Program-made: the position numbers and the translations under genes | Shown: one piece after another, positions 4,299 through 18,556 of the stretch | Numbering within the stretch: position 1 is the first letter of the stretch | How the letters are laid out: each line of letters begins with the position of its first letter | The notes under the pieces: model-generated | What the model saw: the letters and a program-made list of their open reading frames with translations, nothing else | What the model was told of the DNA's origin: nothing | Database searches by the model: none | Source of the DNA: an uncultured Rhodobacteraceae bacterium | GTDB lineage: Bacteria; Pseudomonadota; Alphaproteobacteria; Rhodobacterales; Rhodobacteraceae | DNA: 64,000 nucleotides | Direction: 5' to 3' | NCBI GenBank assembly: GCA_951812615.1 | Contig: CATOSU010000007.1 | Coordinates: forward strand, 41,751-105,750

Positions 4299-6203
4299 AT
4301 GAGGACTGAAAACGAAGACCTGTCGTTCGATGATTTCGACGAACGCATCAACCCGCGCCCGGAAGACTGCGATTTCGACCGGATTGTCGAAGCCGCAATC
4401 ACCCGCCGCGGCCTGCTGGGCGGGATGCTGGCCTATGGCAGCTTTGCCGCGCTTGGCACCACGCTGACGGCATCGTCCGCAAAGGCCGCCGCCGACCGGT
4501 TCGCCTTTGATGCCATCGCGGTTTCGACCAAAGACGCGATCACCGTACCGGCCGGGTACAAGGCCGAGGTTCTGGTGCGCTGGGGTGACCCGCTGTGGTC
4601 GGACGCGCCGGAGTTTGATCACGCGACCCGCGGCACCGCCGCCAGCCAGGAACGCGCCTTTGGCGACAATACCGACGGCATGGACGTGATCGCCCATGAC
4701 GGTCACCTGCTTTTGGTCGTGAACAACGAATACACCAACCGCAAGATCCTGTGGGGCAACAACCCCGATGCCAAGGCGGCGTCCGACGATGACATCGCCA
4801 AGGGCATGATGGCGCATGGCGTGTCGGTGGTTGAGATTGCCCGCGGCGAGGGCGGCTGGCAGATCGTCACGGACAGCCCCTATAACCGCCGGATCACGCC
4901 GCAGACCGACATGGCCCTGACCGGCCCGGCCGCCGGCCACGACCTGCTGAAAACCGACGCTGACCCGTCCGGCACCACGTCCAAGGGCACGTGGAATAAC
5001 TGCGGCAACGGCATGACACCGTGGGGCACCTATCTGGCCTGCGAGGAAAACTTCAACGGCTACTTCTCGTCCAGCGAACAGATCCAGGATCAAAAGCCGG
5101 TCACCATTTCGCCGGAAATGGCCCGCTATGGCATCAGCCCCGAAGACTGGGGCTACGGCTGGGCCAAGATCGACGACCGGTTCGACGTCGCCAAGACCCC
5201 GAACGAGCCCAACCGCGCTGGCTACGTGGTCGAGATTGACCCGACCGACCCGGCCTCGACCCCGCGCAAGCTGACCGCGCTGGGGCGGTTCAAGCACGAA
5301 AACGCCGAGGCCGTGGTCAACAATGACGGCCGCGTCGTGGTTTACATGGGCGACGACGAGCGTGGCGAATTCCTCTACCGTTTCGTTTCCAACGGTGTCT
5401 TCGCCCCGGGCGCCGATACCGATGACCTGCTTGAAAACGGCACGCTGTCGGTGGCGAAGTTCGGCGAGGACGGCACCGGGCAGTGGCTGGACCTGACCCC
5501 GGAAAGCACCGGCATGGCCTCGGCTGCCGAGATCTGCATCCACACCCGTCTGGCCGGTTCGGCGGTGGGCGCCACCACGATGGACCGTCCGGAATGGATT
5601 GCGGCCAACCCGAACGCGGCCGAGGTGTATTGCTGTCTGACCAACAACAAGAACCGGGGCGTGAAGCCAAATGCAGGCGGCGACGAAACGCCGGTGGGCG
5701 GCCCCAATCCGCGCGAGGCCAACAAATACGGCCAGATCGTGCGCTGGTGGCCGGCTGACGGTGATCACACCGCCGCGGGCTTCACTTGGGATCTGTATGT
5801 TCTGGCCGGTAATCCGACCGTGCATTCCGACATGCGCGCCGGGTCCGGCAACGTGACCGCGGACAACATGTTCAATTCGCCCGACGGTCTGAAGTTTGAC
5901 GACAACGGGCTCTTGTGGATCCAGACCGACGGCAAATACTCCAACACGGATGACTTCGCCGGTCAGGGCAACAACCAGATGCTGGCAGGTGACCCGGTCA
6001 CCGGTGAAATCCGCCGCTTCCTTGTCGGCCCGCGCGAATGCGAGGTCACCGGCCTGACATGGTCGCCCGACCGCCGGTCGATGTTCGTCGGCATCCAGCA
6101 CCCGGGCGAACGCGGCGACAGCCACTGGCCCGAAGGCGGCGACGCGGTGCCGCGCTCGGCAATTATCGTCGTCACCCGCGAGGATGGCGGGCTGGTCGGG
6201 TAA
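4299..6203 (+). CDS. phoX: alkaline phosphatase PhoX (DUF839 beta-propeller), Tat-exported
   Basis: Twin-arginine signal ITRRGLLGGMLAYGSFAALG. The length and motifs match the PhoX family (WGTYLACEEN, GRFKHEN, DRPEWIA, FNSPDGL). A GAAGGA Shine-Dalgarno sequence lies 7 nt before the ATG. Confidence 0.9.
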   Translation: MRTENEDLSFDDFDERINPRPEDCDFDRIVEAAITRRGLLGGMLAYGSFAALGTTLTASSAKAAADRFAFDAIAVSTKDAITVPAGYKAEVLVRWGDPLWSDAPEFDHATRGTAASQERAFGDNTDGMDVIAHDGHLLLVVNNEYTNRKILWGNNPDAKAASDDDIAKGMMAHGVSVVEIARGEGGWQIVTDSPYNRRITPQTDMALTGPAAGHDLLKTDADPSGTTSKGTWNNCGNGMTPWGTYLACEENFNGYFSSSEQIQDQKPVTISPEMARYGISPEDWGYGWAKIDDRFDVAKTPNEPNRAGYVVEIDPTDPASTPRKLTALGRFKHENAEAVVNNDGRVVVYMGDDERGEFLYRFVSNGVFAPGADTDDLLENGTLSVAKFGEDGTGQWLDLTPESTGMASAAEICIHTRLAGSAVGATTMDRPEWIAANPNAAEVYCCLTNNKNRGVKPNAGGDETPVGGPNPREANKYGQIVRWWPADGDHTAAGFTWDLYVLAGNPTVHSDMRAGSGNVTADNMFNSPDGLKFDDNGLLWIQTDGKYSNTDDFAGQGNNQMLAGDPVTGEIRRFLVGPRECEVTGLTWSPDRRSMFVGIQHPGERGDSHWPEGGDAVPRSAIIVVTREDGGLVG

Positions 6204-8975: not shown

Positions 8976-9045
8976 CGATGCGAATCGGGCGGCACAACTA
9001 ACTGGTTGGCGCGTCGACCGTCTCTCTGTCGAAAAGGTATCTGTT

Positions 9046-10023
9046 ATGGCTGTTTCCGAGCAAATTCCCGTCAATTCCGGTTTTGATGGCAAATCCACCG
9101 GTGCAGAGGTCGCCGCCGCGTTTGACCTGACCGGCAAAACGGCCGTTGTCACAGGCGGCTACAGCGGCATCGGGCTGGAAACGGTCCGGGTTCTGGCCGA
9201 TCGGGGCGCCAGCGTGATCGTGCCGGTGCGCTCGCCCGACAAGGCATCCGCGGCGCTGGCCGGAATTGCGGGTAACATCCGCACCCTGCCGATGGATCTG
9301 GGCGATCCGGGATCGGTGCGCAGCGCGGCGGACCAGCTGTGCGATGAACTGAACACGCTCGACCTCCTGATCAACAATGCCGGTATCATGGCCTGCCCGC
9401 TGGCGCGGGTCGGGCCGGGCTGGGAAAGCCAGTTCGGCATCAACCACATGGGGCATTTCGCGCTGACGCAGGGTCTGATGCCGCTGCTGGAGAACACTGG
9501 CGGTGCCCGCGTGGTTGCCTTGTCCTCGGGCGGGCACAAGATGGGCGACGTGAACTGGGACGACATTCAGTACCAGCATACCGAATACGACAAGTGGAAG
9601 GCCTACGGGCAGGCCAAGACCGCAAATGCGCTGTTTGCCAACGCGCTTTCGCGGCGGTTGCGCCCGGCCGGCGGGTTGGCATTTTCCCTGCATCCGGGGG
9701 CGATCTTTACACCGCTGCAACGCCACCTGCCGCAGGCAGAAATGATCGCGCTCGGCTGGCTGTCCGAGGACGGCTCGCCCTCGGACATGGCGCGGCGCGT
9801 GTTCAAGACGGTGGAGCAGGGATGTGCAACGACTCTGTGGGCCGCCACCGCGCCCGGGCTGGACGGCAAACCCGGGGTCTATTGCGAGGATTGCGACATC
9901 GCGGTGCTGTCCGATCCAGAGAACCCGGAAACCCGGTTCATCGGCGTGCGGGCTTATGCCTGCGACGATGACGCCGCCGAACGGCTGTGGCAGATCAGCG
10001 AGGCATTGCTGGCCGACGCCTGA
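9046..10023 (+). CDS. SDR family oxidoreductase
   Basis: TGGYSGIG cofactor motif, NNAG motif and a YxxxK catalytic motif (YGQAK). Confidence 0.85.
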   Translation: MAVSEQIPVNSGFDGKSTGAEVAAAFDLTGKTAVVTGGYSGIGLETVRVLADRGASVIVPVRSPDKASAALAGIAGNIRTLPMDLGDPGSVRSAADQLCDELNTLDLLINNAGIMACPLARVGPGWESQFGINHMGHFALTQGLMPLLENTGGARVVALSSGGHKMGDVNWDDIQYQHTEYDKWKAYGQAKTANALFANALSRRLRPAGGLAFSLHPGAIFTPLQRHLPQAEMIALGWLSEDGSPSDMARRVFKTVEQGCATTLWAATAPGLDGKPGVYCEDCDIAVLSDPENPETRFIGVRAYACDDDAAERLWQISEALLADA

Positions 10024-10027
10024 GCCT

Positions 10028-10807
10028 TCAGAGGTCCAGTTCGATCCAGACCGGCACGTGGTCCGAGGGTTTTTCCCGGCCCCGGACATGGGCATCGATC
10101 CGGCAGTCGCGCAACAGATCCGCGCATTGCGGAGTCAGCAGGAAATGATCGATGCGGATCCCGTCGCCGCGTTCCCATGATCCGGCCTGATAATCCCAGA
10201 AACTGTAATGCCCGCCGCCGCGGGTGCGGGCCCGGAACGCCTCGGTAAAGCCCAGATTGACGATCCGCCGCCATGCCGCGCGGGCCTCGGGCCGAAACAG
10301 CGCGTCCTCGGTCCAGGCTTCGGGGCGATGGGCGTCCTCGGCCTGCGGGATGATGTTGTAATCGCCCGCCATCAGCGCAACCTCTTCGCTGGCCAGCAGT
10401 TCGGCCGCCCGCGCTTCCAGACGTTTCATCCAGGCCAGCTTGTAATCGAATTTCGGCCCCGGCGCCGGATTGCCGTTGGGCAGGTACAGTCCGCAGACGC
10501 GCAGCGCCTGCCGGCCCACCACCGTCGCCTCTATCCAGCGGGCCTGTTCGTCGCTGTCGTCACCCGGCAACCCGCGCGACACATCCTCCAGCGGCAGTTT
10601 CGACAGGATCGCCACGCCGTTGAAACCCTTTTGCCCGTGGGTTTCCACGTTATAGCCCCGGTCCTCGAACAATTCCCTCGGGAAGTTTTCGTCGACGGAT
10701 TTGATCTCCTGCAGCAGCGCGACATCCGGCTGCGCCTCGTCAAGCCAGTCGGGCAGGGCGGCGATCCGGGCCTTGATCCCGTTGATGTTGAATGTGGCGA
10801 TCTTCAT
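10028..10807 (-). CDS. xthA: exodeoxyribonuclease III
   Basis: MKIATFNINGIKAR...LLQEIK...SDHVPVWIELDL are canonical ExoIII/APE motifs. Confidence 0.9.
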   Translation of the reverse strand: MKIATFNINGIKARIAALPDWLDEAQPDVALLQEIKSVDENFPRELFEDRGYNVETHGQKGFNGVAILSKLPLEDVSRGLPGDDSDEQARWIEATVVGRQALRVCGLYLPNGNPAPGPKFDYKLAWMKRLEARAAELLASEEVALMAGDYNIIPQAEDAHRPEAWTEDALFRPEARAAWRRIVNLGFTEAFRARTRGGGHYSFWDYQAGSWERGDGIRIDHFLLTPQCADLLRDCRIDAHVRGREKPSDHVPVWIELDL

Positions 10808-10969
10808 CGGCCCCTCCGCTGGCTGTCAGTGATCTATCGCCGATCGTGCGAAAGGGGGCAAGCGGGCCATTTGCCGACGCGGTCGGCGTGATGCGTTCGT
10901 GCAAAACGTGATGGTGATTCGCGTCCGCTCTGGGCGCGATTCCGCATGACATCTGCCCGATTTCGTGCC

Positions 10970-11054
10970 TGTGGATAAGTTTCTTTTCGCGGATCAGCGT
11001 CAGAGCCTTTTGATTTTTCGCCAATTTCTTGGAGCGCGCACCTCATGTGGATAA
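10970..11054 (+). promoter_or_regulatory. two perfect DnaA-box 9-mers (TGTGGATAA, the complement of TTATCCACA) in direct orientation
   Basis: Exact 9-mers at 10970-10978 and 11046-11054. They sit in a locally AT-richer divergent intergenic region between xthA and the repeat-peptide gene. Confidence 0.5.
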
Positions 11055-11156
11055 ACGGGGCCGCAACACACCTTTAAGGAGAGAAAGCATTTGACGAACC
11101 CGTTTAACGTGCAATCGTGAAGGGGCGTTCAACCACTCAAGCAGGAGAAAAGACCA

Positions 11157-11644
11157 TGACCGCACTTCGCAAAGTATACGAAACCACCACCCCCAAGACC
11201 ACGGCTGCGGATGAGGCCAGCCTCTTCGACGGAGACGGCACATTCCTGTTCTCCTCCGGTTCTGCCCCCAGCTGCAGCGCCGACGCGCTGAGCGGCGAAC
11301 AGACGGAAATGTTCTCCTCCGGGTCGGCTCCGACACTGCGCAGCACCGCGCTGAGCGGCGAAGGCGTGGAAATGTTCTCTTCGGGCTCCGCGCCTGTTGC
11401 GTCCTCCGCGGCCCTGACCGGTGAACTGGTTCAGATGTTCTCCTCCGGCTCCGCCCCGGCGGCCAGCGCGGACACGATGGCCGGTGACGGCATCCAGATG
11501 TTCTCGTCCGGCTCGGCCCCGACGGCTGCGGCCGACACCACAACCGGAGAAGGCACCCAGATGTTCTCGTCGGGTTCTGCCCCCGTGGCCACCAGCGATG
11601 CGGTGCGCGGCGACGGAACCGAGATGTTTTCGTCGGGCAGCTGA
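11157..11644 (+). CDS. tandem-repeat peptide/protein (162 aa) with 7 x (M/L)FSSGS(AP); hypothetical, candidate multi-cassette precursor
   Basis: ORF 11117..11644, trimmed to the ATG at 11157 with an AGGAGA Shine-Dalgarno sequence 7 nt upstream. It has a 21-aa period, and differences within the conserved blocks between repeat copies are synonymous. Confidence 0.7.
11246..11644 (+). repeat. 63-nt tandem repeat, about 6.3 copies, in-frame coding
   Basis: Motif starts fall at 11246, 11309, 11372, 11435, 11498, 11561 and 11624, exactly 63 nt apart. Confidence 0.95.
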
Positions 11645-11707
11645 TCTGACCGCGAAATGAGTGTTGGACACGGGGCGTTCAGGGAACGCCGTTCGAAGGA
11701 GAAATCA

Positions 11708-12784
11708 ATGTCGAATGTCGTACATCTGAATGTTCCGTCCCAACGTCAGAGCCAGCAGTCGCGCCACGGCGCGCTGCTTGGCGTCTTTGGCCGCCAGCGC
11801 CGATTTGGCGACGATGTGTTCTGGCTGAAGGAAAACGCTGAACTGCTGAACATACTGGAATGCACGCGGGCCGGGGTCGATCCCGCCGCCCTGTCCGTGC
11901 ACGAACCGTTTTATGCCGAAGTTGAGAAGCGGCTGGGGTTTTTCCCCCAGTATTACCGCTTCCTGTTGTCGATCTGCCTGGACCTCGAGGCGCTCGGTCT
12001 GCCGGGGTCCAAGGCCGAAGCACTGATACACTGGGCCGCGCGCGAGGGGCTGGCGGATGCCGAACTGTCGGACCTGCAACGCGCCGAGGCGCGCCGGCTG
12101 ATGATGCGCCGCGGGGTCGATCCGCTGCCCGAAGACACCGGCCTGACCGACCGGCTGCACGCCTTCATCGACCGCAGCGATACTTTCGCCTTGCCGAACA
12201 AGAAGGCGGCATATGAGTTGACCCATATCGTCTTTTATCTCAGCGAATACGGGCGCTGTGACCCGGGCCTGTCGGCCCGCGCGGTTACCAGCCTCGAATT
12301 TGCCGGGATCCTTGCCTATCTCGATCAGAATTCAGACCTGTTGTCCGAAATCTGCGTCGCCCTGCGCTATGCCGGACACATACCCTCGCAGATCTGGGAA
12401 GACTGGCTGGAACGCGAAACGCACCGGTTTTCAATGATACAGGGGCCGCAAACGACGCTTCAGGACGATTATCACGACTATTTTGTCTGCAACTGGCTGA
12501 TGGCAATGTCGGGCCGGGATGCCTTTGTCAAACCGGTGGCCGACGAACCGGCCACCTTTCACCAATCAGAGCCATGGGACGGGCCGCTGCGCCGGATGTC
12601 GGAATGCATGTTCGAAATGGCCGATGACCGGTCAGATGACTGGCACCGGATGCGCCCGGTGATCGAAGACACGCTGAGCGACACCGGTCACGACATCCTG
12701 TGCGAAGCTCTGCAAAGCACTGACAAGTTCGAAGCGTTCTTCGCCGGCTTCGCCCGGACCGGCCTGCGGGGAGTGGCGCTGTGA
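11708..12784 (+). CDS. hypothetical protein (358 aa), predicted all-helical, family not recognised
   Basis: ORF 11657..12784, trimmed to the ATG at 11708 with an AAGGAGA Shine-Dalgarno sequence 5 nt upstream. It has no signal peptide or TM segment and contains several E/D-xx-H motifs (YELTHIVFY, DDYHDYF, EALIHW). Its stop overlaps the next start (GTGA). Confidence 0.8.
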   Translation: MSNVVHLNVPSQRQSQQSRHGALLGVFGRQRRFGDDVFWLKENAELLNILECTRAGVDPAALSVHEPFYAEVEKRLGFFPQYYRFLLSICLDLEALGLPGSKAEALIHWAAREGLADAELSDLQRAEARRLMMRRGVDPLPEDTGLTDRLHAFIDRSDTFALPNKKAAYELTHIVFYLSEYGRCDPGLSARAVTSLEFAGILAYLDQNSDLLSEICVALRYAGHIPSQIWEDWLERETHRFSMIQGPQTTLQDDYHDYFVCNWLMAMSGRDAFVKPVADEPATFHQSEPWDGPLRRMSECMFEMADDRSDDWHRMRPVIEDTLSDTGHDILCEALQSTDKFEAFFAGFARTGLRGVAL

Positions 12785-13683
12785 CCGTGCTGGCGGCGCG
12801 GGCGGCCCCGGCCGGGGTGATTTTCGCTTCGGGTCTGGTGGTGCTTTATACCGGGCTGATTTCCGGGGCTGACGCGATCACCAAGCTGATCGCCGGCGGC
12901 TATGCCGCTCCGCAGCTTTACGCCTTTTCGGGGCTGATCGTGATCGGGCTGAGCCTGTTGGCCGACCGCCACGCCACCGGGCGGCGGGGCCTGCGCACCG
13001 GCTGCCCGCGGGCGATGGCGTTGCGGTCGGCGGCGACCGTCGCGGCGGCGGTGTCGTTTTTTCACGCCTTCCGGCTGCTGCCCTTTGCCGAGGTGTTTCT
13101 GTTCATCGGCCTGATGCCGATTCTGGCTGGGCTGATGTCCGGCCCGATCCTGCGTGAATATGTGCGCCCGGCGGCCTGGCTGGCGCTGATCGCCGGTTTT
13201 GCCGGCGTCGCCTGCCTGTTTCCGGCCGGGCCGGGCTCGGTCTCCGCTGGTCACTTGTGGGCGTTGGCGGTGGCGGTGTCGGGGACCTTCTCGATGGTGC
13301 TGGCGCGCTTTATCGGGCGGCATGAAAACAACGCGCTGGCGCAGGTGTTCTACCCCAACCTCGCACTGTTTGTGACCATGTCGGCGGCGCTGCCTTTCGT
13401 GTGGAGGCCGATGCCGGTGACGGATCTGGTCTGGGTCGCAGCCTATGCTGCACTGCTTTTCGCCGCGCGCTGGGTGCTGGTCGAGGCGCTGCGCCGGCTG
13501 GCGGCCTATACGGTCACACCACTGATGAACCTGCAATTTGTCTGGATGGCGGTGATCGGCGCCGTGGGCTTCGGCGAGTTTCCCGGCGCCGGCACCTATC
13601 TGGGCGTGGCGGTTATCATGGCCTCGGGCGCCTATCTGGTCTGGGAGCAGTTTTCACCGGGAAAGCCTGCGGCTGTGACGTAG
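12781..13683 (+). CDS. DMT superfamily (EamA-like) transporter
   Basis: About 10 hydrophobic segments and a two-EamA-repeat architecture. The GTG start overlaps the upstream stop. Confidence 0.85.
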   Translation: MTVLAARAAPAGVIFASGLVVLYTGLISGADAITKLIAGGYAAPQLYAFSGLIVIGLSLLADRHATGRRGLRTGCPRAMALRSAATVAAAVSFFHAFRLLPFAEVFLFIGLMPILAGLMSGPILREYVRPAAWLALIAGFAGVACLFPAGPGSVSAGHLWALAVAVSGTFSMVLARFIGRHENNALAQVFYPNLALFVTMSAALPFVWRPMPVTDLVWVAAYAALLFAARWVLVEALRRLAAYTVTPLMNLQFVWMAVIGAVGFGEFPGAGTYLGVAVIMASGAYLVWEQFSPGKPAAVT

Positions 13684-13705
13684 GATGGGTGATATCACCC
13701 ATCCT
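13682..13705. repeat. 24-nt perfect palindrome AGGATGGGTGATATCACCCATCCT, copy 2 (extends to a 28-nt palindrome here)
   Basis: It begins inside the TAG stop of the EamA gene and sits between convergent genes. GTAGGATGGGTGATATCACCCATCCTAC is fully self-complementary. Confidence 0.9.
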
Positions 13706-13712
13706 ACCGCAG

Positions 13713-14036
13713 TCAGATCGAAAACGAGGTGCCGCAGCCGCAGCTGGAGGTGGCGTTCGGATTGTCGATGACGAACCGCGCCCCGATCAGTTCCTCGGAA
13801 AAATCGATTGTCGCGTTTTCCAGAAACGGCAGCGACACGGCATCGACCAGCACTTTCTCCCCGCCGCCTTCGAGGACAAGGTCGTCGTCTTTCGGCGTGT
13901 CCAGCGCGATCTCGTACTGGAAGCCGGAGCATCCGCCGCCCTCGACTGCGACACGCAGCGCCTGACCCTGGGCTGCGGCGCCGATCTCGGCCAGCCGCTC
14001 GAAAGTGCGGGGGGTGACTTTTGGGGGCAGGTTCAT
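13713..14036 (-). CDS. erpA: iron-sulfur cluster insertion protein (ErpA/IscA/HesB family)
   Basis: ORF trimmed to the ATG at 14036. It has CSGFQY and the C-terminal CGCGTSF cysteine motif. Confidence 0.85.
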   Translation of the reverse strand: MNLPPKVTPRTFERLAEIGAAAQGQALRVAVEGGGCSGFQYEIALDTPKDDDLVLEGGGEKVLVDAVSLPFLENATIDFSEELIGARFVIDNPNATSSCGCGTSFSI

Positions 14037-14112
14037 GGATCTCTCCGGCGGTTCCAACTGGGCGCAAATGGCAATATAGAAACCCGCGGGACAGGCGACA
14101 AGGACAACTGCG

Positions 14113-15249
14113 ATGCGGGCGGCATATGCATCCGATCCGGGCCACGCGCGCGGGCGGCTGGTGGCAGAGGAGGAATCCGCGTTCCGGTCCTGCTTTCAGC
14201 GGGACCGCGACCGGATCATTCACGCCAGCGCCTTCCGCCGGCTCAAGCACAAGACGCAGGTCTTCGTCGAGCACGAGGGCGACAATTACCGCACCCGGCT
14301 GACCCATTCGATCGAGGTGGCACAGGTCGCCCGCACCATCGCCGGGGCGCTGGAGCTGAACCCGGAACTGACCGAGGCCGTGGCGCTGGCCCATGATCTG
14401 GGCCACACGCCCTTTGGTCATACCGGAGAGGATGCCCTGCACGCACTGATGGCACCTTATGGCGGCTTCGATCACAACGCGCAGGCAATCCGGATCGTGA
14501 CCCGGCTGGAGCGTCATTATGCCCGGTTCGACGGGTTGAACCTTACCTGGGAAACCCTTGAAGCCATTGCAAAACACAACGGGCCGGTCACCGGGGACCT
14601 GCCCTGGGCACTGGACGCCTGCAACCGGGTGTTCGATCTGGAACTGAGCACCCATGCCAGCGCCGAGGCGCAGGTCGCCGCGCTGTCGGATGACATCGCC
14701 TATAACAACCACGATCTGCATGACGGGCTGCGGGCCGGGCTGTTTACCGATGCCGATATCGCGCATCTTCCAATCGTGCGCGACGCTTATGCCGAGGTTG
14801 ACAGGCTCTGGCCGGATCTGGATCCGCGCCGCCGCCGGCACGAAGCGCTACGGCGGGTGTTCGGGGTGATGGTGTCGGACGTGATCGACACGTCCCGTGC
14901 GGCACTGGAGACGGCCGGCGCTTCGTCGGTGGCCGAGATCCGGCATTTGGGCCGACCGGTGATCCGGTTTTCGGACGGGCTCTGGTCCGATCTGCAGGAA
15001 ATCCGGGCGTTTTTGTTTTCCAGCATGTACCGTGCCCCGGCGGTGATGGAAAAACGCGCCGAGGTGACGCAGGTGGTCGAGGATCTATTCCCGTTGTTTC
15101 TGGACCGGCCCGCGCTGTTGCCCGAGCGCTGGCAGGCCGATGTCACCCGCGCTGCGGATGAAACCACGCTGGCGCGGATGGTGTCGGATTACATCGCCGG
15201 CATGACCGACCGCTTCGCGCTGCAGCAGCATGCCCGGCTGGTCGGCTGA
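14113..15249 (+). CDS. dgt: deoxyguanosinetriphosphate triphosphohydrolase-like HD-domain protein
   Basis: FQRDRDRIIHSxAFRRLxxKTQV and RLTHSIEVAQV, plus the HD motif (AHDLGHTPFGH). Confidence 0.9.
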   Translation: MRAAYASDPGHARGRLVAEEESAFRSCFQRDRDRIIHASAFRRLKHKTQVFVEHEGDNYRTRLTHSIEVAQVARTIAGALELNPELTEAVALAHDLGHTPFGHTGEDALHALMAPYGGFDHNAQAIRIVTRLERHYARFDGLNLTWETLEAIAKHNGPVTGDLPWALDACNRVFDLELSTHASAEAQVAALSDDIAYNNHDLHDGLRAGLFTDADIAHLPIVRDAYAEVDRLWPDLDPRRRRHEALRRVFGVMVSDVIDTSRAALETAGASSVAEIRHLGRPVIRFSDGLWSDLQEIRAFLFSSMYRAPAVMEKRAEVTQVVEDLFPLFLDRPALLPERWQADVTRAADETTLARMVSDYIAGMTDRFALQQHARLVG

Positions 15250-15792
15250 TCACTCAACCCCGATGAACACCACTGCCCAGACCTGCAACGCCTCCAGCTC
15301 TTCCTGCAGGGCGGCGTCTTTTTGCGGCGGATAGATGACCGCCGCCGGACCGAACCCGCCCAGCGCCAGCGGCCTGCCATTGGCGTGGGTGGCCAGGATC
15401 GGGCGCAGGCCGGTGATATTGTCCCACGGGATCTCGACCTGATACCCGTCCAGCGCCATGGGCAGCGCCGTGCGTTCGTCGGCCCCGGCAGCATACATCA
15501 CCGATGACAGGTAAGGCCCGGTCAAGCTCACATCCGTCCATGGGCCGAATTTGGGCAGCGTGATGCGCCCCTGGTCCAGCCCCGCCAGCATGGCGTCGTC
15601 AAACCCGACAGCGGCGGCGAAATTCAGGTCGAGATAGCCAAAGAAATTTGCGTCGTCTTCGGTTCCCGCGGGCATGTTGCCCGAAGGCAGGTCGCCGCCG
15701 ACGGTGACAATCACCCGGTCGCCGGGGGCGGTCATTTCGGCGGCGACGGTAAACGGGAGCAACAACAGCAGCAGGACTGTAAGGATACGCAT
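15250..15792 (-). CDS. secreted hypothetical protein
   Basis: N-terminal signal peptide MRILTVLLLLLLPFTVAA. Coding-like GC3. I could not confidently assign a family. Confidence 0.65.
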   Translation of the reverse strand: MRILTVLLLLLLPFTVAAEMTAPGDRVIVTVGGDLPSGNMPAGTEDDANFFGYLDLNFAAAVGFDDAMLAGLDQGRITLPKFGPWTDVSLTGPYLSSVMYAAGADERTALPMALDGYQVEIPWDNITGLRPILATHANGRPLALGGFGPAAVIYPPQKDAALQEELEALQVWAVVFIGVE

Positions 15793-15953
15793 CAGTTATT
15801 CCTCGGGTTGGGATTGCGTTCGTTTCGCATGGGCTTATGAATTGGACATAGCGAGAATCCGCGGTTCGACAAATGGATCGGGCCGGGTTTGAATTATCTG
15901 GCTGCACCTCTTAGATTGAAAGACAAGAGCAGTGTTCCGGGAGAGGCCTGAAG

Positions 15954-16073
15954 ATGCGTGATGAGGATGTCAGCCGGGTCGCCGACAAGATCGTCGAATA
16001 TCTGGACAAGAACTGGCTTTTGGTGATTGTCGTGATCCTTGCGGTCGCCGTCTTGATCCGGGTGGTGTCATAG
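15954..16073 (+). CDS. candidate small membrane protein (39 aa)
   Basis: My own translation: [48 protein letters not shown] Shine-Dalgarno sequence lies 7 nt upstream, there is one TM helix and GC3 is high. It overlaps the convergent channel gene by 6 nt and is below the ORF-track cutoff. Confidence 0.3.
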   Translation: MRDEDVSRVADKIVEYLDKNWLLVIVVILAVAVLIRVVS

Positions 16074-16754
16074 CGGATCACCTTCCGCCTCTTTCTTATT
16101 GTTTTCAATTTCTTTTTCCAGCGCTTCCCGTTGCTGTTCAAGCGCGCCGATGGCCTCCTCCAGCTCCGTTTTGTTTCCGGTCAGGTCGGTGATTTCCTGA
16201 CGGAAACTGCTCACCGCATCCTTGACCGAACTTTCGCTTCGCTTGCTCAGCAGAAAAAAGACCGAAGCCGCCACAAGCGCCAGATGCAGGTTTCCCGCCA
16301 TTGCTTCGGCTGCGGCGGGAAAACGGGCGGTTGCCTGCGGCGTCACATCGCCGAACCCCAGCGTCGAAAAAGCGACGATCGAAAAATACAGCGATGTCCA
16401 GTGGTCATGGACCCCGGCACCGTCAAAGGTCAGCCCCGTCTCCACGAACACATAGGCACAGGCAAAGATTGTGAACGTGCCGGACAGCAGCACGTGAAAC
16501 AGGAAATCCGACGCGCTGACCCGGGTGCTGAGCGCGATCGCCAGAAGGATCACGAAATAGGCATAGGCCAGTCCCAGAACGTAGTAGCCGCCGGTGCCGG
16601 TTATGAAGACACCCCAGAGCCCGAAGGCCTCGCGTATGTAGTTCGCACCAAGCGCCAGCGTCAGAGCGATGGCCAGGATCAGGATGCCGCGCCCGGCCGG
16701 GCGGGGCGGGCTCACATCAGGCTTGTCGGGCGGGGCCAAGTCAATCCCTCTCAT
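16068..16754 (-). CDS. potassium-channel family protein with a C-terminal coiled-coil
   Basis: ORF 16068..17042, trimmed to the ATG at 16754. It has the selectivity-filter-like TLGFGD, TM helices and a heptad-rich charged tail ([26 protein letters not shown]). Confidence 0.75.
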
Positions 16755-16810
16755 TGACCTTTCGGTCCCTGATGGTACACGCAGCTTTGCCAAAATGGGA
16801 AGACGGACGC

Positions 16811-18556
16811 ATGAACCTATTTGCCGAAATTCGCGCGCTGGTGCTCGGTGCGTTGCAGCAGATGCAGGCGCAGGGCGACCTGCCCGAAGGGCTGAGCTTT
16901 GACAACGTCGCGGTTGAACCGCCCCGCGACCCGGCACATGGGGACATGGCCACGAACGCGGCGATGGTTCTGGCGAAACCGGCCCGGATGAAACCGCGTG
17001 ACATTGCCGAAAAACTGGCCGCGCTGCTGGCTGCGGACGCACGGATTACCTCCGCCGAAGTGGCCGGTCCGGGCTTTCTGAATCTGCGTCTGGCCGATAC
17101 CGCGTGGCAGGGTGTGCTGCGGGCGATTCTTGAGACCGGCACCGCCTATGGCCGGTCGCAGATGGGGCAGGGCGCCCGTGTGAACGTTGAATTCGTCTCG
17201 GCCAACCCGACCGGGCCCTTGCATGTGGGCCACACCCGCGGCGCCGTGTTCGGCGACGCGCTGGCGGCGCTGCTGGATTTTGCCGGCTATGACGTCACCC
17301 GCGAATATTACATCAATGACGGCGGCGCTCAGGTCGACGTGCTGGCGCGGTCAGTCTACCTGCGCTACCTCGAAGCGCACGGACAGGATGTGGCCTTCGA
17401 GGACGGCACCTATCCCGGCGATTACCTGATCCCCGTGGGCGAGGCGCTGAAAGACAAGGTCGGCGACGCCTATCTGGATGAGCCTGAAGAGGTTTGGTTG
17501 TCCGAGATCCGGGATTTCGCCACCGACGCGATGATGGACCTGATCCGGGACGATCTGGCCCGGCTCGGGGTGAAGATGGACGTGTTCTTCTCTGAAAAAT
17601 CGCTCTATGGCACCGGGCTGATCGAGGCCGCGATCGAGGCGTTGCAGGATCGGGGCCTGATCTATACCGGCGTTCTGGAACCGCCCAAGGGCAAAAAGCC
17701 CGAGGATTGGGAACCACGCGAACAGACGCTGTTCAAATCCACCGAACATGGCGATGACGTGGACCGTCCGATCATGAAGTCCGATGGCAGCTGGACTTAT
17801 TTCACCCCGGATATCGCGTATCATTTCGATAAAGTTTCCAGAGGGTTCGACGCACTTATTGATGTATTCGGTGCCGATCACGGCGGTTATGTGAAGCGGA
17901 TGAAGGCGGCGGTTTCGGCGCTGAGCGACGGCCGGGTGCCGCTGGATATCAAGCTGACCCAGCTGGTGAAACTCTACAAAAACGGCGAACCGTTCAAGAT
18001 GTCGAAACGCGCGGGCACCTTCGTGACCCTGCGCGACGTGGTCGATCAGGTCGGGCCGGACGTGGCCCGCTTTGTGATGCTCACGCGCAAGAACGACGCC
18101 TCGCTGGATTTCGATTTCGACAAGGTGCTGGAACAAAGCCGCGAAAACCCGGTCTTCTACGTGCAATACGCCCATGCCCGCGTGATGAGCGTGCTGCGCC
18201 GCGCGGCCGAGGCTGGCATGGATGCCGGTGACGATGTTCTGGCCGCCGCGGATCTGGGCGGGATCACCCACGAGGCCGAGCTGGCGGTGGCCCGCAAGCT
18301 GGCGGAATGGCCGCGGCTGGTCGAGATCGCGGCGCGCACAAACGAACCGCATCGCGTGGCCTTCTACCTCTATGAACTGGCCGGTGATTTCCACGCGCTC
18401 TGGAACCGCGGCAACGAACTGCCCGAGCTGCGCTTCCTTCAGGATGACGGCGCCGCCGCCAGCCAGCCGAAAATCGCCCTTGCCCGGGCCGTTTCCGTTG
18501 TCATTTCCGCCGGGCTTGGTATTCTTGGCGTAGAACCGGCGCAGGAGATGCGGTGA
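16811..18556 (+). CDS. argS: arginine--tRNA ligase
   Basis: ORF trimmed to the ATG at 16811 ([11 protein letters not shown]). HIGH-type motif ([12 protein letters not shown]) and the KMSKR-like MSKRAG. Confidence 0.95.

Follow-up and report, generated by a model that had tools for sequence, protein, structure and literature searches.

A conserved repeat-peptide and DUF6902 operon of the Rhodobacteraceae as a candidate multi-core ribosomal peptide pathway

Introduction

Peptides that are synthesized on the ribosome and then modified post-translationally (RiPPs) can be made from multi-core precursors, in which several short cores are joined by spacers and the copy number varies by species; examples are the cyanobactin precursors of the PatE type, the Kex2-processed precursors of fungi, such as that of ustiloxin (PMC7329392), and those of the plant orbitides and lyciumins. 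Here we describe a locus that resembles them, in a stretch of 64,000 nucleotides (the window) from an uncultured Rhodobacteraceae bacterium (assembly GCA_951812615.1, contig CATOSU010000007.1, positions 41,751 to 105,750 of the forward strand). Three co-oriented open reading frames (ORFs), encoding a tandem-repeat protein, a DUF6902 protein and a transporter of the EamA/drug-metabolite transporter (DMT) type, lie between xthA and an ErpA-like gene, with no other ORFs in the interval. We see about an even chance that this operon, which lies behind two conserved DnaA boxes, is a ribosomal peptide pathway in which a DUF6902 enzyme tailors a multi-core precursor and a DMT protein exports the product. 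Unlike the systems named above, it is without cyanobactin proteases, DUF3328/UstY enzymes or Kex2 sites, its enzyme family and core motif are different, and the operon is chromosomal, syntenic and family-wide rather than patchy in its distribution.

DUF6895, a family to which the second protein of the operon is related, is called a lasso-peptide epimerase family in the title of a paper by Shi et al. (ACS Catal. 2026, 16:1757, doi 10.1021/acscatal.5c08590), which is cited in PMC13352647 and PMC13453073. The likeness lies in the match of the DUF6895 profile to residues 30-250 of the window protein and in the helical make-up of both, and would further lie, going by that title, in their being encoded beside a ribosomal peptide gene; the differences are that the window protein falls into a separate family, DUF6902, and that its candidate substrate is a linear, multi-copy motif, not a lasso peptide. 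A lasso peptide cluster was considered for the locus itself and rejected, as no asparagine-synthetase-like cyclase (C), transglutaminase-like leader peptidase (B) or PqqD-like RiPP recognition element lies between xthA and erpA. In the biosynthesis of the lasso peptide MS-271 a metal-dependent epimerase, MslH (PMC8179263 and PMC10406935, as cited in PMC13352647), inverts a single residue close to the C-terminal end of the ribosomal precursor; its fold is that of the calcineurin-like metallophosphoesterases. That the repeat protein described below ends exactly with its motif hints at recognition of the C-terminus by a tailoring enzyme here as well. DUF6902 shares neither sequence nor fold similarity with MslH.

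The logic of precursor, maturase and exporter is known. The enzyme family, the motif, the polyprotein-like precursor, the almost universal vertical descent at one fixed locus in a clade of ecological importance and the conserved DnaA boxes are new, and our literature search found no paper on DUF6902, on DUF6749 (NCBI names one orthologue of the repeat protein 'DUF6749 domain-containing protein'), on the repeat protein or on its motif.

Results

The repeat gene occupies positions 11156..11644 on the forward strand, behind an AGGAGA ribosome-binding site (11143-11148), and encodes a protein of 162 amino acids (aa) and about 16 kDa: an N-terminus reading MTALRK, then seven units of ~21 aa, the last of which ends the protein with MFSSGS. 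A preliminary description of this DNA, made from the letters alone, had recognized this ORF; its start, however, is the ATG at 11156 and not position 11157, from which the frame hits stop codons. The core motif reads LFSSGS in the first copy (11246..11263) and MFSSGS in the other six (11309..11326, 11372..11389, 11435..11452, 11498..11515, 11561..11578 and, with the stop codon directly after it, 11624..11641), all on the forward strand. The seven 63-nt units are only 63-72% identical to one another in nucleotides, and the codon differences among the seven cores comprise 65 synonymous against 6 non-synonymous changes, indicating that selection acts at the level of the repeat peptide. The exact 162-aa product was not found in the protein collection, so that gene callers must miss the gene or start it elsewhere.

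Eighty related loci were fetched as a synteny sample and compared with the window by tblastn with its proteins. Of 81 loci, 77 were seen to contain an orthologous repeat ORF; the remainder are truncated contigs or loci in which the ORF lies further upstream. The consensus unit, drawn from 569 motif instances, reads G (91%), D or E (84%), A or G, T or V (88%), any residue, M or L (92%), F (95%), S or T (98%), S (87%), G (83%) and S, L or A, and is usually followed by Ala-Pro and a hypervariable spacer; lineage variants of the motif include FTSGL, FSSGA, FTTSL, FTCGL, FSSCS and FASGS. Orthologues carry 3-15 copies, spaced mostly at 21 or 20 aa and also at 8 aa. Some genera have bare 8-aa units (TALFTSGS, VQMFTSGL), and the repeat proteins of Shimia, Seohaeicola and Pseudooceanicola combine 8-aa units with others of ~20 aa; the occurrence of units this short points to a short functional core. 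No residue follows the last copy of the motif in 65 of 71 species. At the other end the sequence M-x-A-[LQ]-x-K is conserved, with M1 and K6 invariant and A3 nearly so. The window protein has no signal peptide and no match to a Pfam or NCBIfam family.

The second gene (11708..12784, forward strand) follows the repeat gene after 63 nt and has an AAGGAGA ribosome-binding site (11696-11702), both as first described. Its 358-aa product, which the preliminary description could not assign to a family, is a full-length match to Pfam DUF6902 (PF21843): the E is 6e-166, the score reaches 552 bits where the cut-off is 27, and residues 1-351 align with profile positions 1-351 of 351. It also matches Pfam DUF6895 (PF21836; E 4e-23, 82.7 bits against a cut-off of 23.8) over residues 30-250 and profile positions 20-257 of 289, with scores far under those for DUF6902; from these profile scores we class it as a member of DUF6902 and a relative, not a member, of DUF6895. 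DUF6902 is a small family: among 1.84 billion representatives it forms 177 clusters when grouped at 50% identity. An AlphaFold2 (AF2) model built with 29 homologues is all-helical, with 20 helices, a predicted local distance difference test score (pLDDT) of 88.6 and a predicted template modelling score (pTM) of 0.89. The structural comparison suggested in the preliminary description, made with this confident model, found no relative in the PDB: the best Foldseek match had an E of 0.33, the few alpha/alpha-toroid proteins retrieved had template modelling scores of at most 0.3, which is too weak to be informative, and a search of the PDB by sequence with the DUF6902 profile gave no meaningful match.

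Across the family, in members down to 22% identity, residues K41, E45, R84, G182, D210, L212, E214, W230 and H256 are invariant, and D122, R125, E127, R149, Y169 and H173 nearly so. The invariance of polar residues at 22% identity suggests that DUF6902 is an enzyme and, together with the Pfam and AF2 results, makes it a candidate for peptide tailoring. Several E/D-xx-H motifs had been noted in the protein and a metal-binding helical enzyme tentatively proposed from them; the histidines H173 and H256 are indeed conserved family-wide, but their acidic partners vary and the EALIHW motif is not conserved, so that the metal-binding proposal is unsupported.

The same order of genes, FAD (flavin adenine dinucleotide) monooxygenase, xthA(-), repeat gene(+), DUF6902(+), EamA(+), erpA(-), dgt(+) and argS(+), is common to nearly all 80 loci of the sample, and the co-occurrence of repeat ORF and DUF6902 was seen in essentially every Rhodobacteraceae locus sampled. 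Because the entire region is syntenic, adjacency within the family is weak evidence of a functional link. As it may reflect synteny alone, we also surveyed distant DUF6902 genes outside the syntenic block. Each of these lies directly behind a small ORF, while the surrounding genes differ from case to case and include no known RiPP enzyme. In loci L084-L086, L087, L090 and L091 the partner is a peptide of 57-62 aa (L084 3816-4004; L087 802-987; L090 3862-4047; L091 5819-5992), whose N-terminus is helical and leader-like and whose C-terminus forms a conserved core, ...[IV]VYDDDKYFA[IV][MV]K or VICDSDHYCFVVK; in two of these loci its ORF overlaps the DUF6902 gene by 4 nt. This peptide family is unrelated to the window repeat protein. 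In L081, L083, L088 and L089 the partner is a peptide of ~90 aa (L081 3267-3542; L083 44-307; L088 246-518; L089 2-121) with the motifs Y-x-G-D-F and [ML]-Y-[TK]-G-x-G, the second of which recalls the [ML]-F-[ST]-S-G of the repeat protein. None of the small partners matches a Pfam or NCBIfam family.

The three full-length peptides of ~90 aa carry a textbook Sec signal, the L089 ORF being cut by the contig end. Precursors with Sec signals are known from the bufferins, whose enzyme is an MNIO/DUF692 protein, and from some other RiPPs. By this likeness the ~90-aa partners suggest modification in the cytoplasm followed by Sec export. The analogy has its bounds: MNIO/DUF692 is unrelated to DUF6902, and the window repeat protein, which lacks a signal peptide, has a DMT exporter as its partner instead.

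A short ORF that adjoins and is co-oriented with a dedicated candidate modifying enzyme, the pair being kept across contexts, is the arrangement by which RiPP loci are recognized, and it is what we found. A locus that has lost the partner is also instructive. In L082 (GCA_041224595.1, JBGFGN010000157.1; DUF6902 at 5001-6005) the order is xthA, DUF6902, erpA, dgt, without repeat ORF and EamA; its DUF6902 protein matches the window protein with an E of 7e-15 and 26% identity and has lost conserved motif residues of the family, which looks like decay following loss of the partner. The logic of substrate, processing protein and exporter put forward in the preliminary description is thereby strengthened: repeat ORF and DUF6902 co-occur, a small ORF is paired with DUF6902 in unrelated contexts too, DUF6902 is decayed in L082, and the sister family DUF6895 is named a peptide epimerase in the title cited above. 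The exporter is an accessory.

The third gene (12781..13683, forward strand) starts with a GTG that overlaps the DUF6902 stop codon (GTGA, 4 nt), as had been reported. Its 300-aa product matches Pfam EamA in two stretches (E 4e-11), as befits a two-domain EamA/DMT protein, and reaches no specific NCBIfam equivalog. An EamA gene lies downstream in ~90% of the related loci, overlapping or abutting the DUF6902 stop codon in several. As it is missing from the other ~10%, in which repeat gene and DUF6902 are retained, the conserved core of the operon is peptide plus DUF6902.

The spacer upstream of the repeat gene is AT-richer than the window, as first noted (GC 0.51-0.56 as compared with 0.64), and contains two exact matches to the DnaA box, TTATCCACA, on the reverse strand at 10970..10978 and 11046..11054, 76 bp apart. 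These are the only perfect DnaA boxes in the window; two or more were obtained in 1 of 100 shuffles. The position of the pair is kept in related loci: the spacing is 75-77 bp in all loci but one, 29 of 71 species have both boxes in perfect form and a further 16 have one perfect box, and the ~11-kb loci contain, with one exception, no other perfect box. An alignment of 26 intergenic sequences places the boxes at a fixed distance from the repeat-gene ATG and at a variable distance from xthA. The boxes are followed in nearly all aligned loci by a GTGCAAnCGT element (11109..11118 on the forward strand of the window), conserved at 80% or more and lying ~40-50 nt 5' of the repeat-gene ATG, which is a candidate promoter element or element of the 5' untranslated region. 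A search of Rfam over positions 9000-17000 at E <= 1 gave no match.

These patterns suggest that transcription of the operon may be under the control of DnaA, and that the boxes point to DnaA-dependent regulation rather than to a replication origin. The criteria used for oriC in the Rhodobacteraceae (PMC6699656) are clustered DnaA boxes where the GC skew switches and proximity to parAB. An origin at this locus was rejected as unlikely: there are only two boxes, no skew switch was seen at 11 kb on a coarse 2-kb scale, and the boxes are lost in about a third of the operon-bearing species, being absent in Shimia, Litorivita and some other genera; parAB was not searched for. The boxes had been presented as the left boundary of a cassette. 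Their existence and place stand, but they are a conserved component of the upstream region of the operon and not its border.

Between the repeat gene and the DUF6902 gene lies a hairpin, GGCGTTC-AGG-GAACGCC (11674..11690, forward strand). A stem of at least 6 bp is found ~21 nt ahead of the DUF6902 ATG in 73% of 79 loci, as compared with 33% of shuffled sequences, and the arms of this GC-rich hairpin vary in sequence among loci yet remain complementary. RNAalifold applied to a MAFFT alignment of the intercistronic regions produced no consensus structure. Taken together, support for a conserved intercistronic hairpin is moderate.

A perfect palindrome of 28 nt is present at 13680..13707, as had been reported, and begins one base ahead of the TAG stop codon of the transporter gene. 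Folded as RNA it gives a hairpin of -33 kcal/mol (z = -6), and it probably forms a bidirectional hairpin between the convergent EamA and erpA genes. It had been taken for the right-hand border of the cassette, a role that does not fit its distribution: the 26-nt palindrome GTAGGATGGGTGATATCACCCATCCT occurs twice in the window, at 319-345 and 13680-13707, in both cases between genes, and its core GGGTGATATCACCC was not found in 90 related loci. It may be a dispersed element specific to this genome or may act as operator for a dimeric regulator.

When a single genome was scanned for each GTDB species, DUF6902 relatives were found encoded in at least 568 species genomes, a lower bound, nearly all of them titled Rhodobacteraceae or Paracoccaceae. 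Ruegeria pomeroyi (P0278) is among the roseobacters that have the locus. It is also carried by two records that bear gammaproteobacterial labels, L014 (titled Granulosicoccus sp. MAG, a metagenome-assembled genome) and P0052 (titled Microbulbifer sp. S227A); the flanks of L014 are Rhodobacteraceae-like (xthA, erpA and dgt at 78-83% identity), and both labels are likely to reflect mis-binning or mislabelling.

The preliminary description had the cassette inserted between xthA and erpA. Comparison of this interval across the Rhodobacteraceae, which it had proposed as a check, revealed no insertion: the operon stands in the same order in nearly all 80 species sampled and is syntenic family-wide. 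The GC content of its genes, overall and at third codon positions (GC3, 0.75-0.83), is that of the neighbours, no tRNA gene or flanking direct repeat marks the locus as a genomic island, and tblastn against plasmids found no homologue of the operon. A genomic island or inserted cassette was rejected on these grounds. To judge by its synteny and composition, the operon is ancestral and vertically inherited in the marine Rhodobacteraceae (Roseobacter group).

Discussion

If the operon is a ribosomal peptide pathway, the product of the first gene would be a multi-core precursor in which the M-x-A-[LQ]-x-K N-terminus is followed by 3-15 units of the form G-[DE]-x-[TV]-x-[ML]-F-[ST]-S-G-[SLA], with variable spacers that start with Ala-Pro and a last unit that forms the C-terminus. 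The DUF6902 protein would be a cytoplasmic, all-helical enzyme that recognizes the motif and modifies a residue in or beside the invariant aromatic position. By analogy with DUF6895, as this is named in the title of Shi et al., its chemistry would most likely be acid/base epimerization by way of its invariant residues (Lys, Glu, Arg, Asp, Glu and His). The intercistronic hairpin would keep precursor mRNA in excess of enzyme mRNA, a protease encoded elsewhere would release the units, the small product would leave the cell through the translationally coupled EamA/DMT exporter, and the DnaA boxes would tie transcription to DnaA.

A number of points weigh against such a pathway. Neither a protease nor a RiPP recognition element is encoded in the locus, and other known RiPP enzymes are missing from it as well. 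For a natural-product cluster it is unusual to keep one chromosomal position and to be inherited vertically almost throughout, and DMT transporters usually move small metabolites, not peptides; moreover, the EamA gene is absent from ~10% of the loci. Mutual information between the motif variants and the columns of the DUF6902 alignment picked out only hypervariable, phylogeny-driven columns. The substrate role, the type of modification, cleavage, export and DnaA control are all read from adjacency and co-conservation, and the connection of DUF6895 to lasso peptides is taken from the title of a cited paper only. Finally, AF2 models the repeat protein as a folded structure, and this leads to the main rival explanation.

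On that explanation, which we consider unlikely, the repeat protein is a folded beta-solenoid or fibre with one coil per 21-aa unit, functional-amyloid or bactofilin-like, with DUF6902 as its chaperone, modifier or partner and the transporter incidental. The AF2 model, which is moderately confident, shows beta-solenoid-like stacked strands with a period of 21 residues that end at the conserved Phe (pLDDT 68, pTM 0.66), Foldseek offers it only beta-helices and the FapC amyloid as neighbours, each of them weak (E > 3), and there is some hydrophobic periodicity at motif positions -9, -3, -1 and 0. The functional amyloids CsgA and FapC likewise consist of imperfect tandem repeats of ~20 residues. 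They differ in that the repeat protein is accompanied by neither a signal peptide nor curli/Fap export machinery. A solenoid would not tolerate the inconstant unit length of Shimia, Seohaeicola and Pseudooceanicola (8 as against ~20 aa), and copy numbers from 3 to 15, hypervariable spacers and the short, non-repeat nature of the distant DUF6902 partners also argue against a solenoid; a pLDDT of only 68 and the lack of a significant Foldseek match do not strengthen the model, and AF2 often yields solenoids for tandem repeats. The variable copy number would suit a disordered, multivalent carrier of short linear motifs, an intracellular regulator or titrator, possibly linked to DnaA or replication, that DUF6902 binds or modifies. 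The fixed distance of the conserved DnaA boxes from the gene, the activity of the neighbours xthA and dgt in DNA metabolism and the missing signal peptide all agree with such a protein. We nevertheless regard it as quite improbable, for the motif matches no recognized binding motif, the exact C-terminal ending and the coupled exporter would go unexplained, and about a third of the species that keep the operon are missing the boxes.

That the three genes are unrelated neighbours, held together merely by conserved local order, would accord with the synteny of the whole region from the FAD monooxygenase gene to argS. Local order would not account for the pairing of a small ORF with DUF6902 in six unrelated contexts outside the family, for the joint decay of repeat gene and DUF6902 in L082 or for the 4-nt stop/start overlaps, and we hold this explanation to be very improbable. 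Least credible of all, and to our minds barely worth entertaining, is a natural-product cassette of three genes, mobile and of recent insertion, with the DnaA-box region and the palindrome as its borders: the AT-richer spacer and the perfect palindrome at the 3' end would be in its favour, but it has against it the identical order in nearly all 80 species and many genera, a GC3 equal to that of the neighbours with no tRNA gene, direct repeat or plasmid homologue, the conservation of the DnaA boxes within the block and the further copy of the palindrome at 319-345.

Returning to the ribosomal peptide pathway, a more far-reaching form of it is possible, though we put it forward tentatively and would rate it as doubtful. 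The operon would represent an undescribed class of multi-core ribosomal peptides, a near-core trait of the Roseobacter group, with a maturase fold that has no solved relative and with expression wired to DnaA; its product would be a modified (for example, D-amino-acid-containing) penta- to undecapeptide around Phe-Ser-Ser-Gly-Ser, exported by the DMT protein and serving as a lineage-wide signal, cofactor or public good. Few marine heterotrophs are as abundant or as well studied as the Rhodobacteraceae of the Roseobacter group, and how they interact chemically with algae is a large field of research. A peptide system that sits at a fixed locus in at least several hundred species and has escaped description would offer a fresh candidate, open to easy testing, for a signal or metabolite shared by the lineage. 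Such a system would also give a function to DUF6902 and to the repeat protein, one orthologue of which bears the DUF6749 name, would be a rare bacterial case of a polyprotein-like multi-core precursor, and would extend the chemistry of DUF6895 enzymes, as far as the title cited describes it, beyond lasso peptides. Given the conserved DnaA boxes, production of the peptide may further be tied to the state of replication.

Flanking genes and chromosomal position

The operon is flanked on the left by xthA (10028-10807, reverse strand) and on the right by the gene for an ErpA-like A-type carrier (13713-14057, reverse strand), followed by dgt and argS; these housekeeping neighbours, like the three ORFs of the operon, are those given in the preliminary description. 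An ORF of 180 aa at 15250-15792 on the reverse strand has a signal-peptide-like N-terminal segment and belongs to no NCBIfam family; it was found in some of the syntenic loci only (L004, L018, L029 and L031). In three complete or chromosome-level assemblies, L016, L037 and L004, the locus is found 42-50% of the way along the chromosome (2.21 of 4.44, 2.33 of 4.73 and 1.99 of 4.71 Mb, respectively), which would place it near the terminus if these records begin near oriC.

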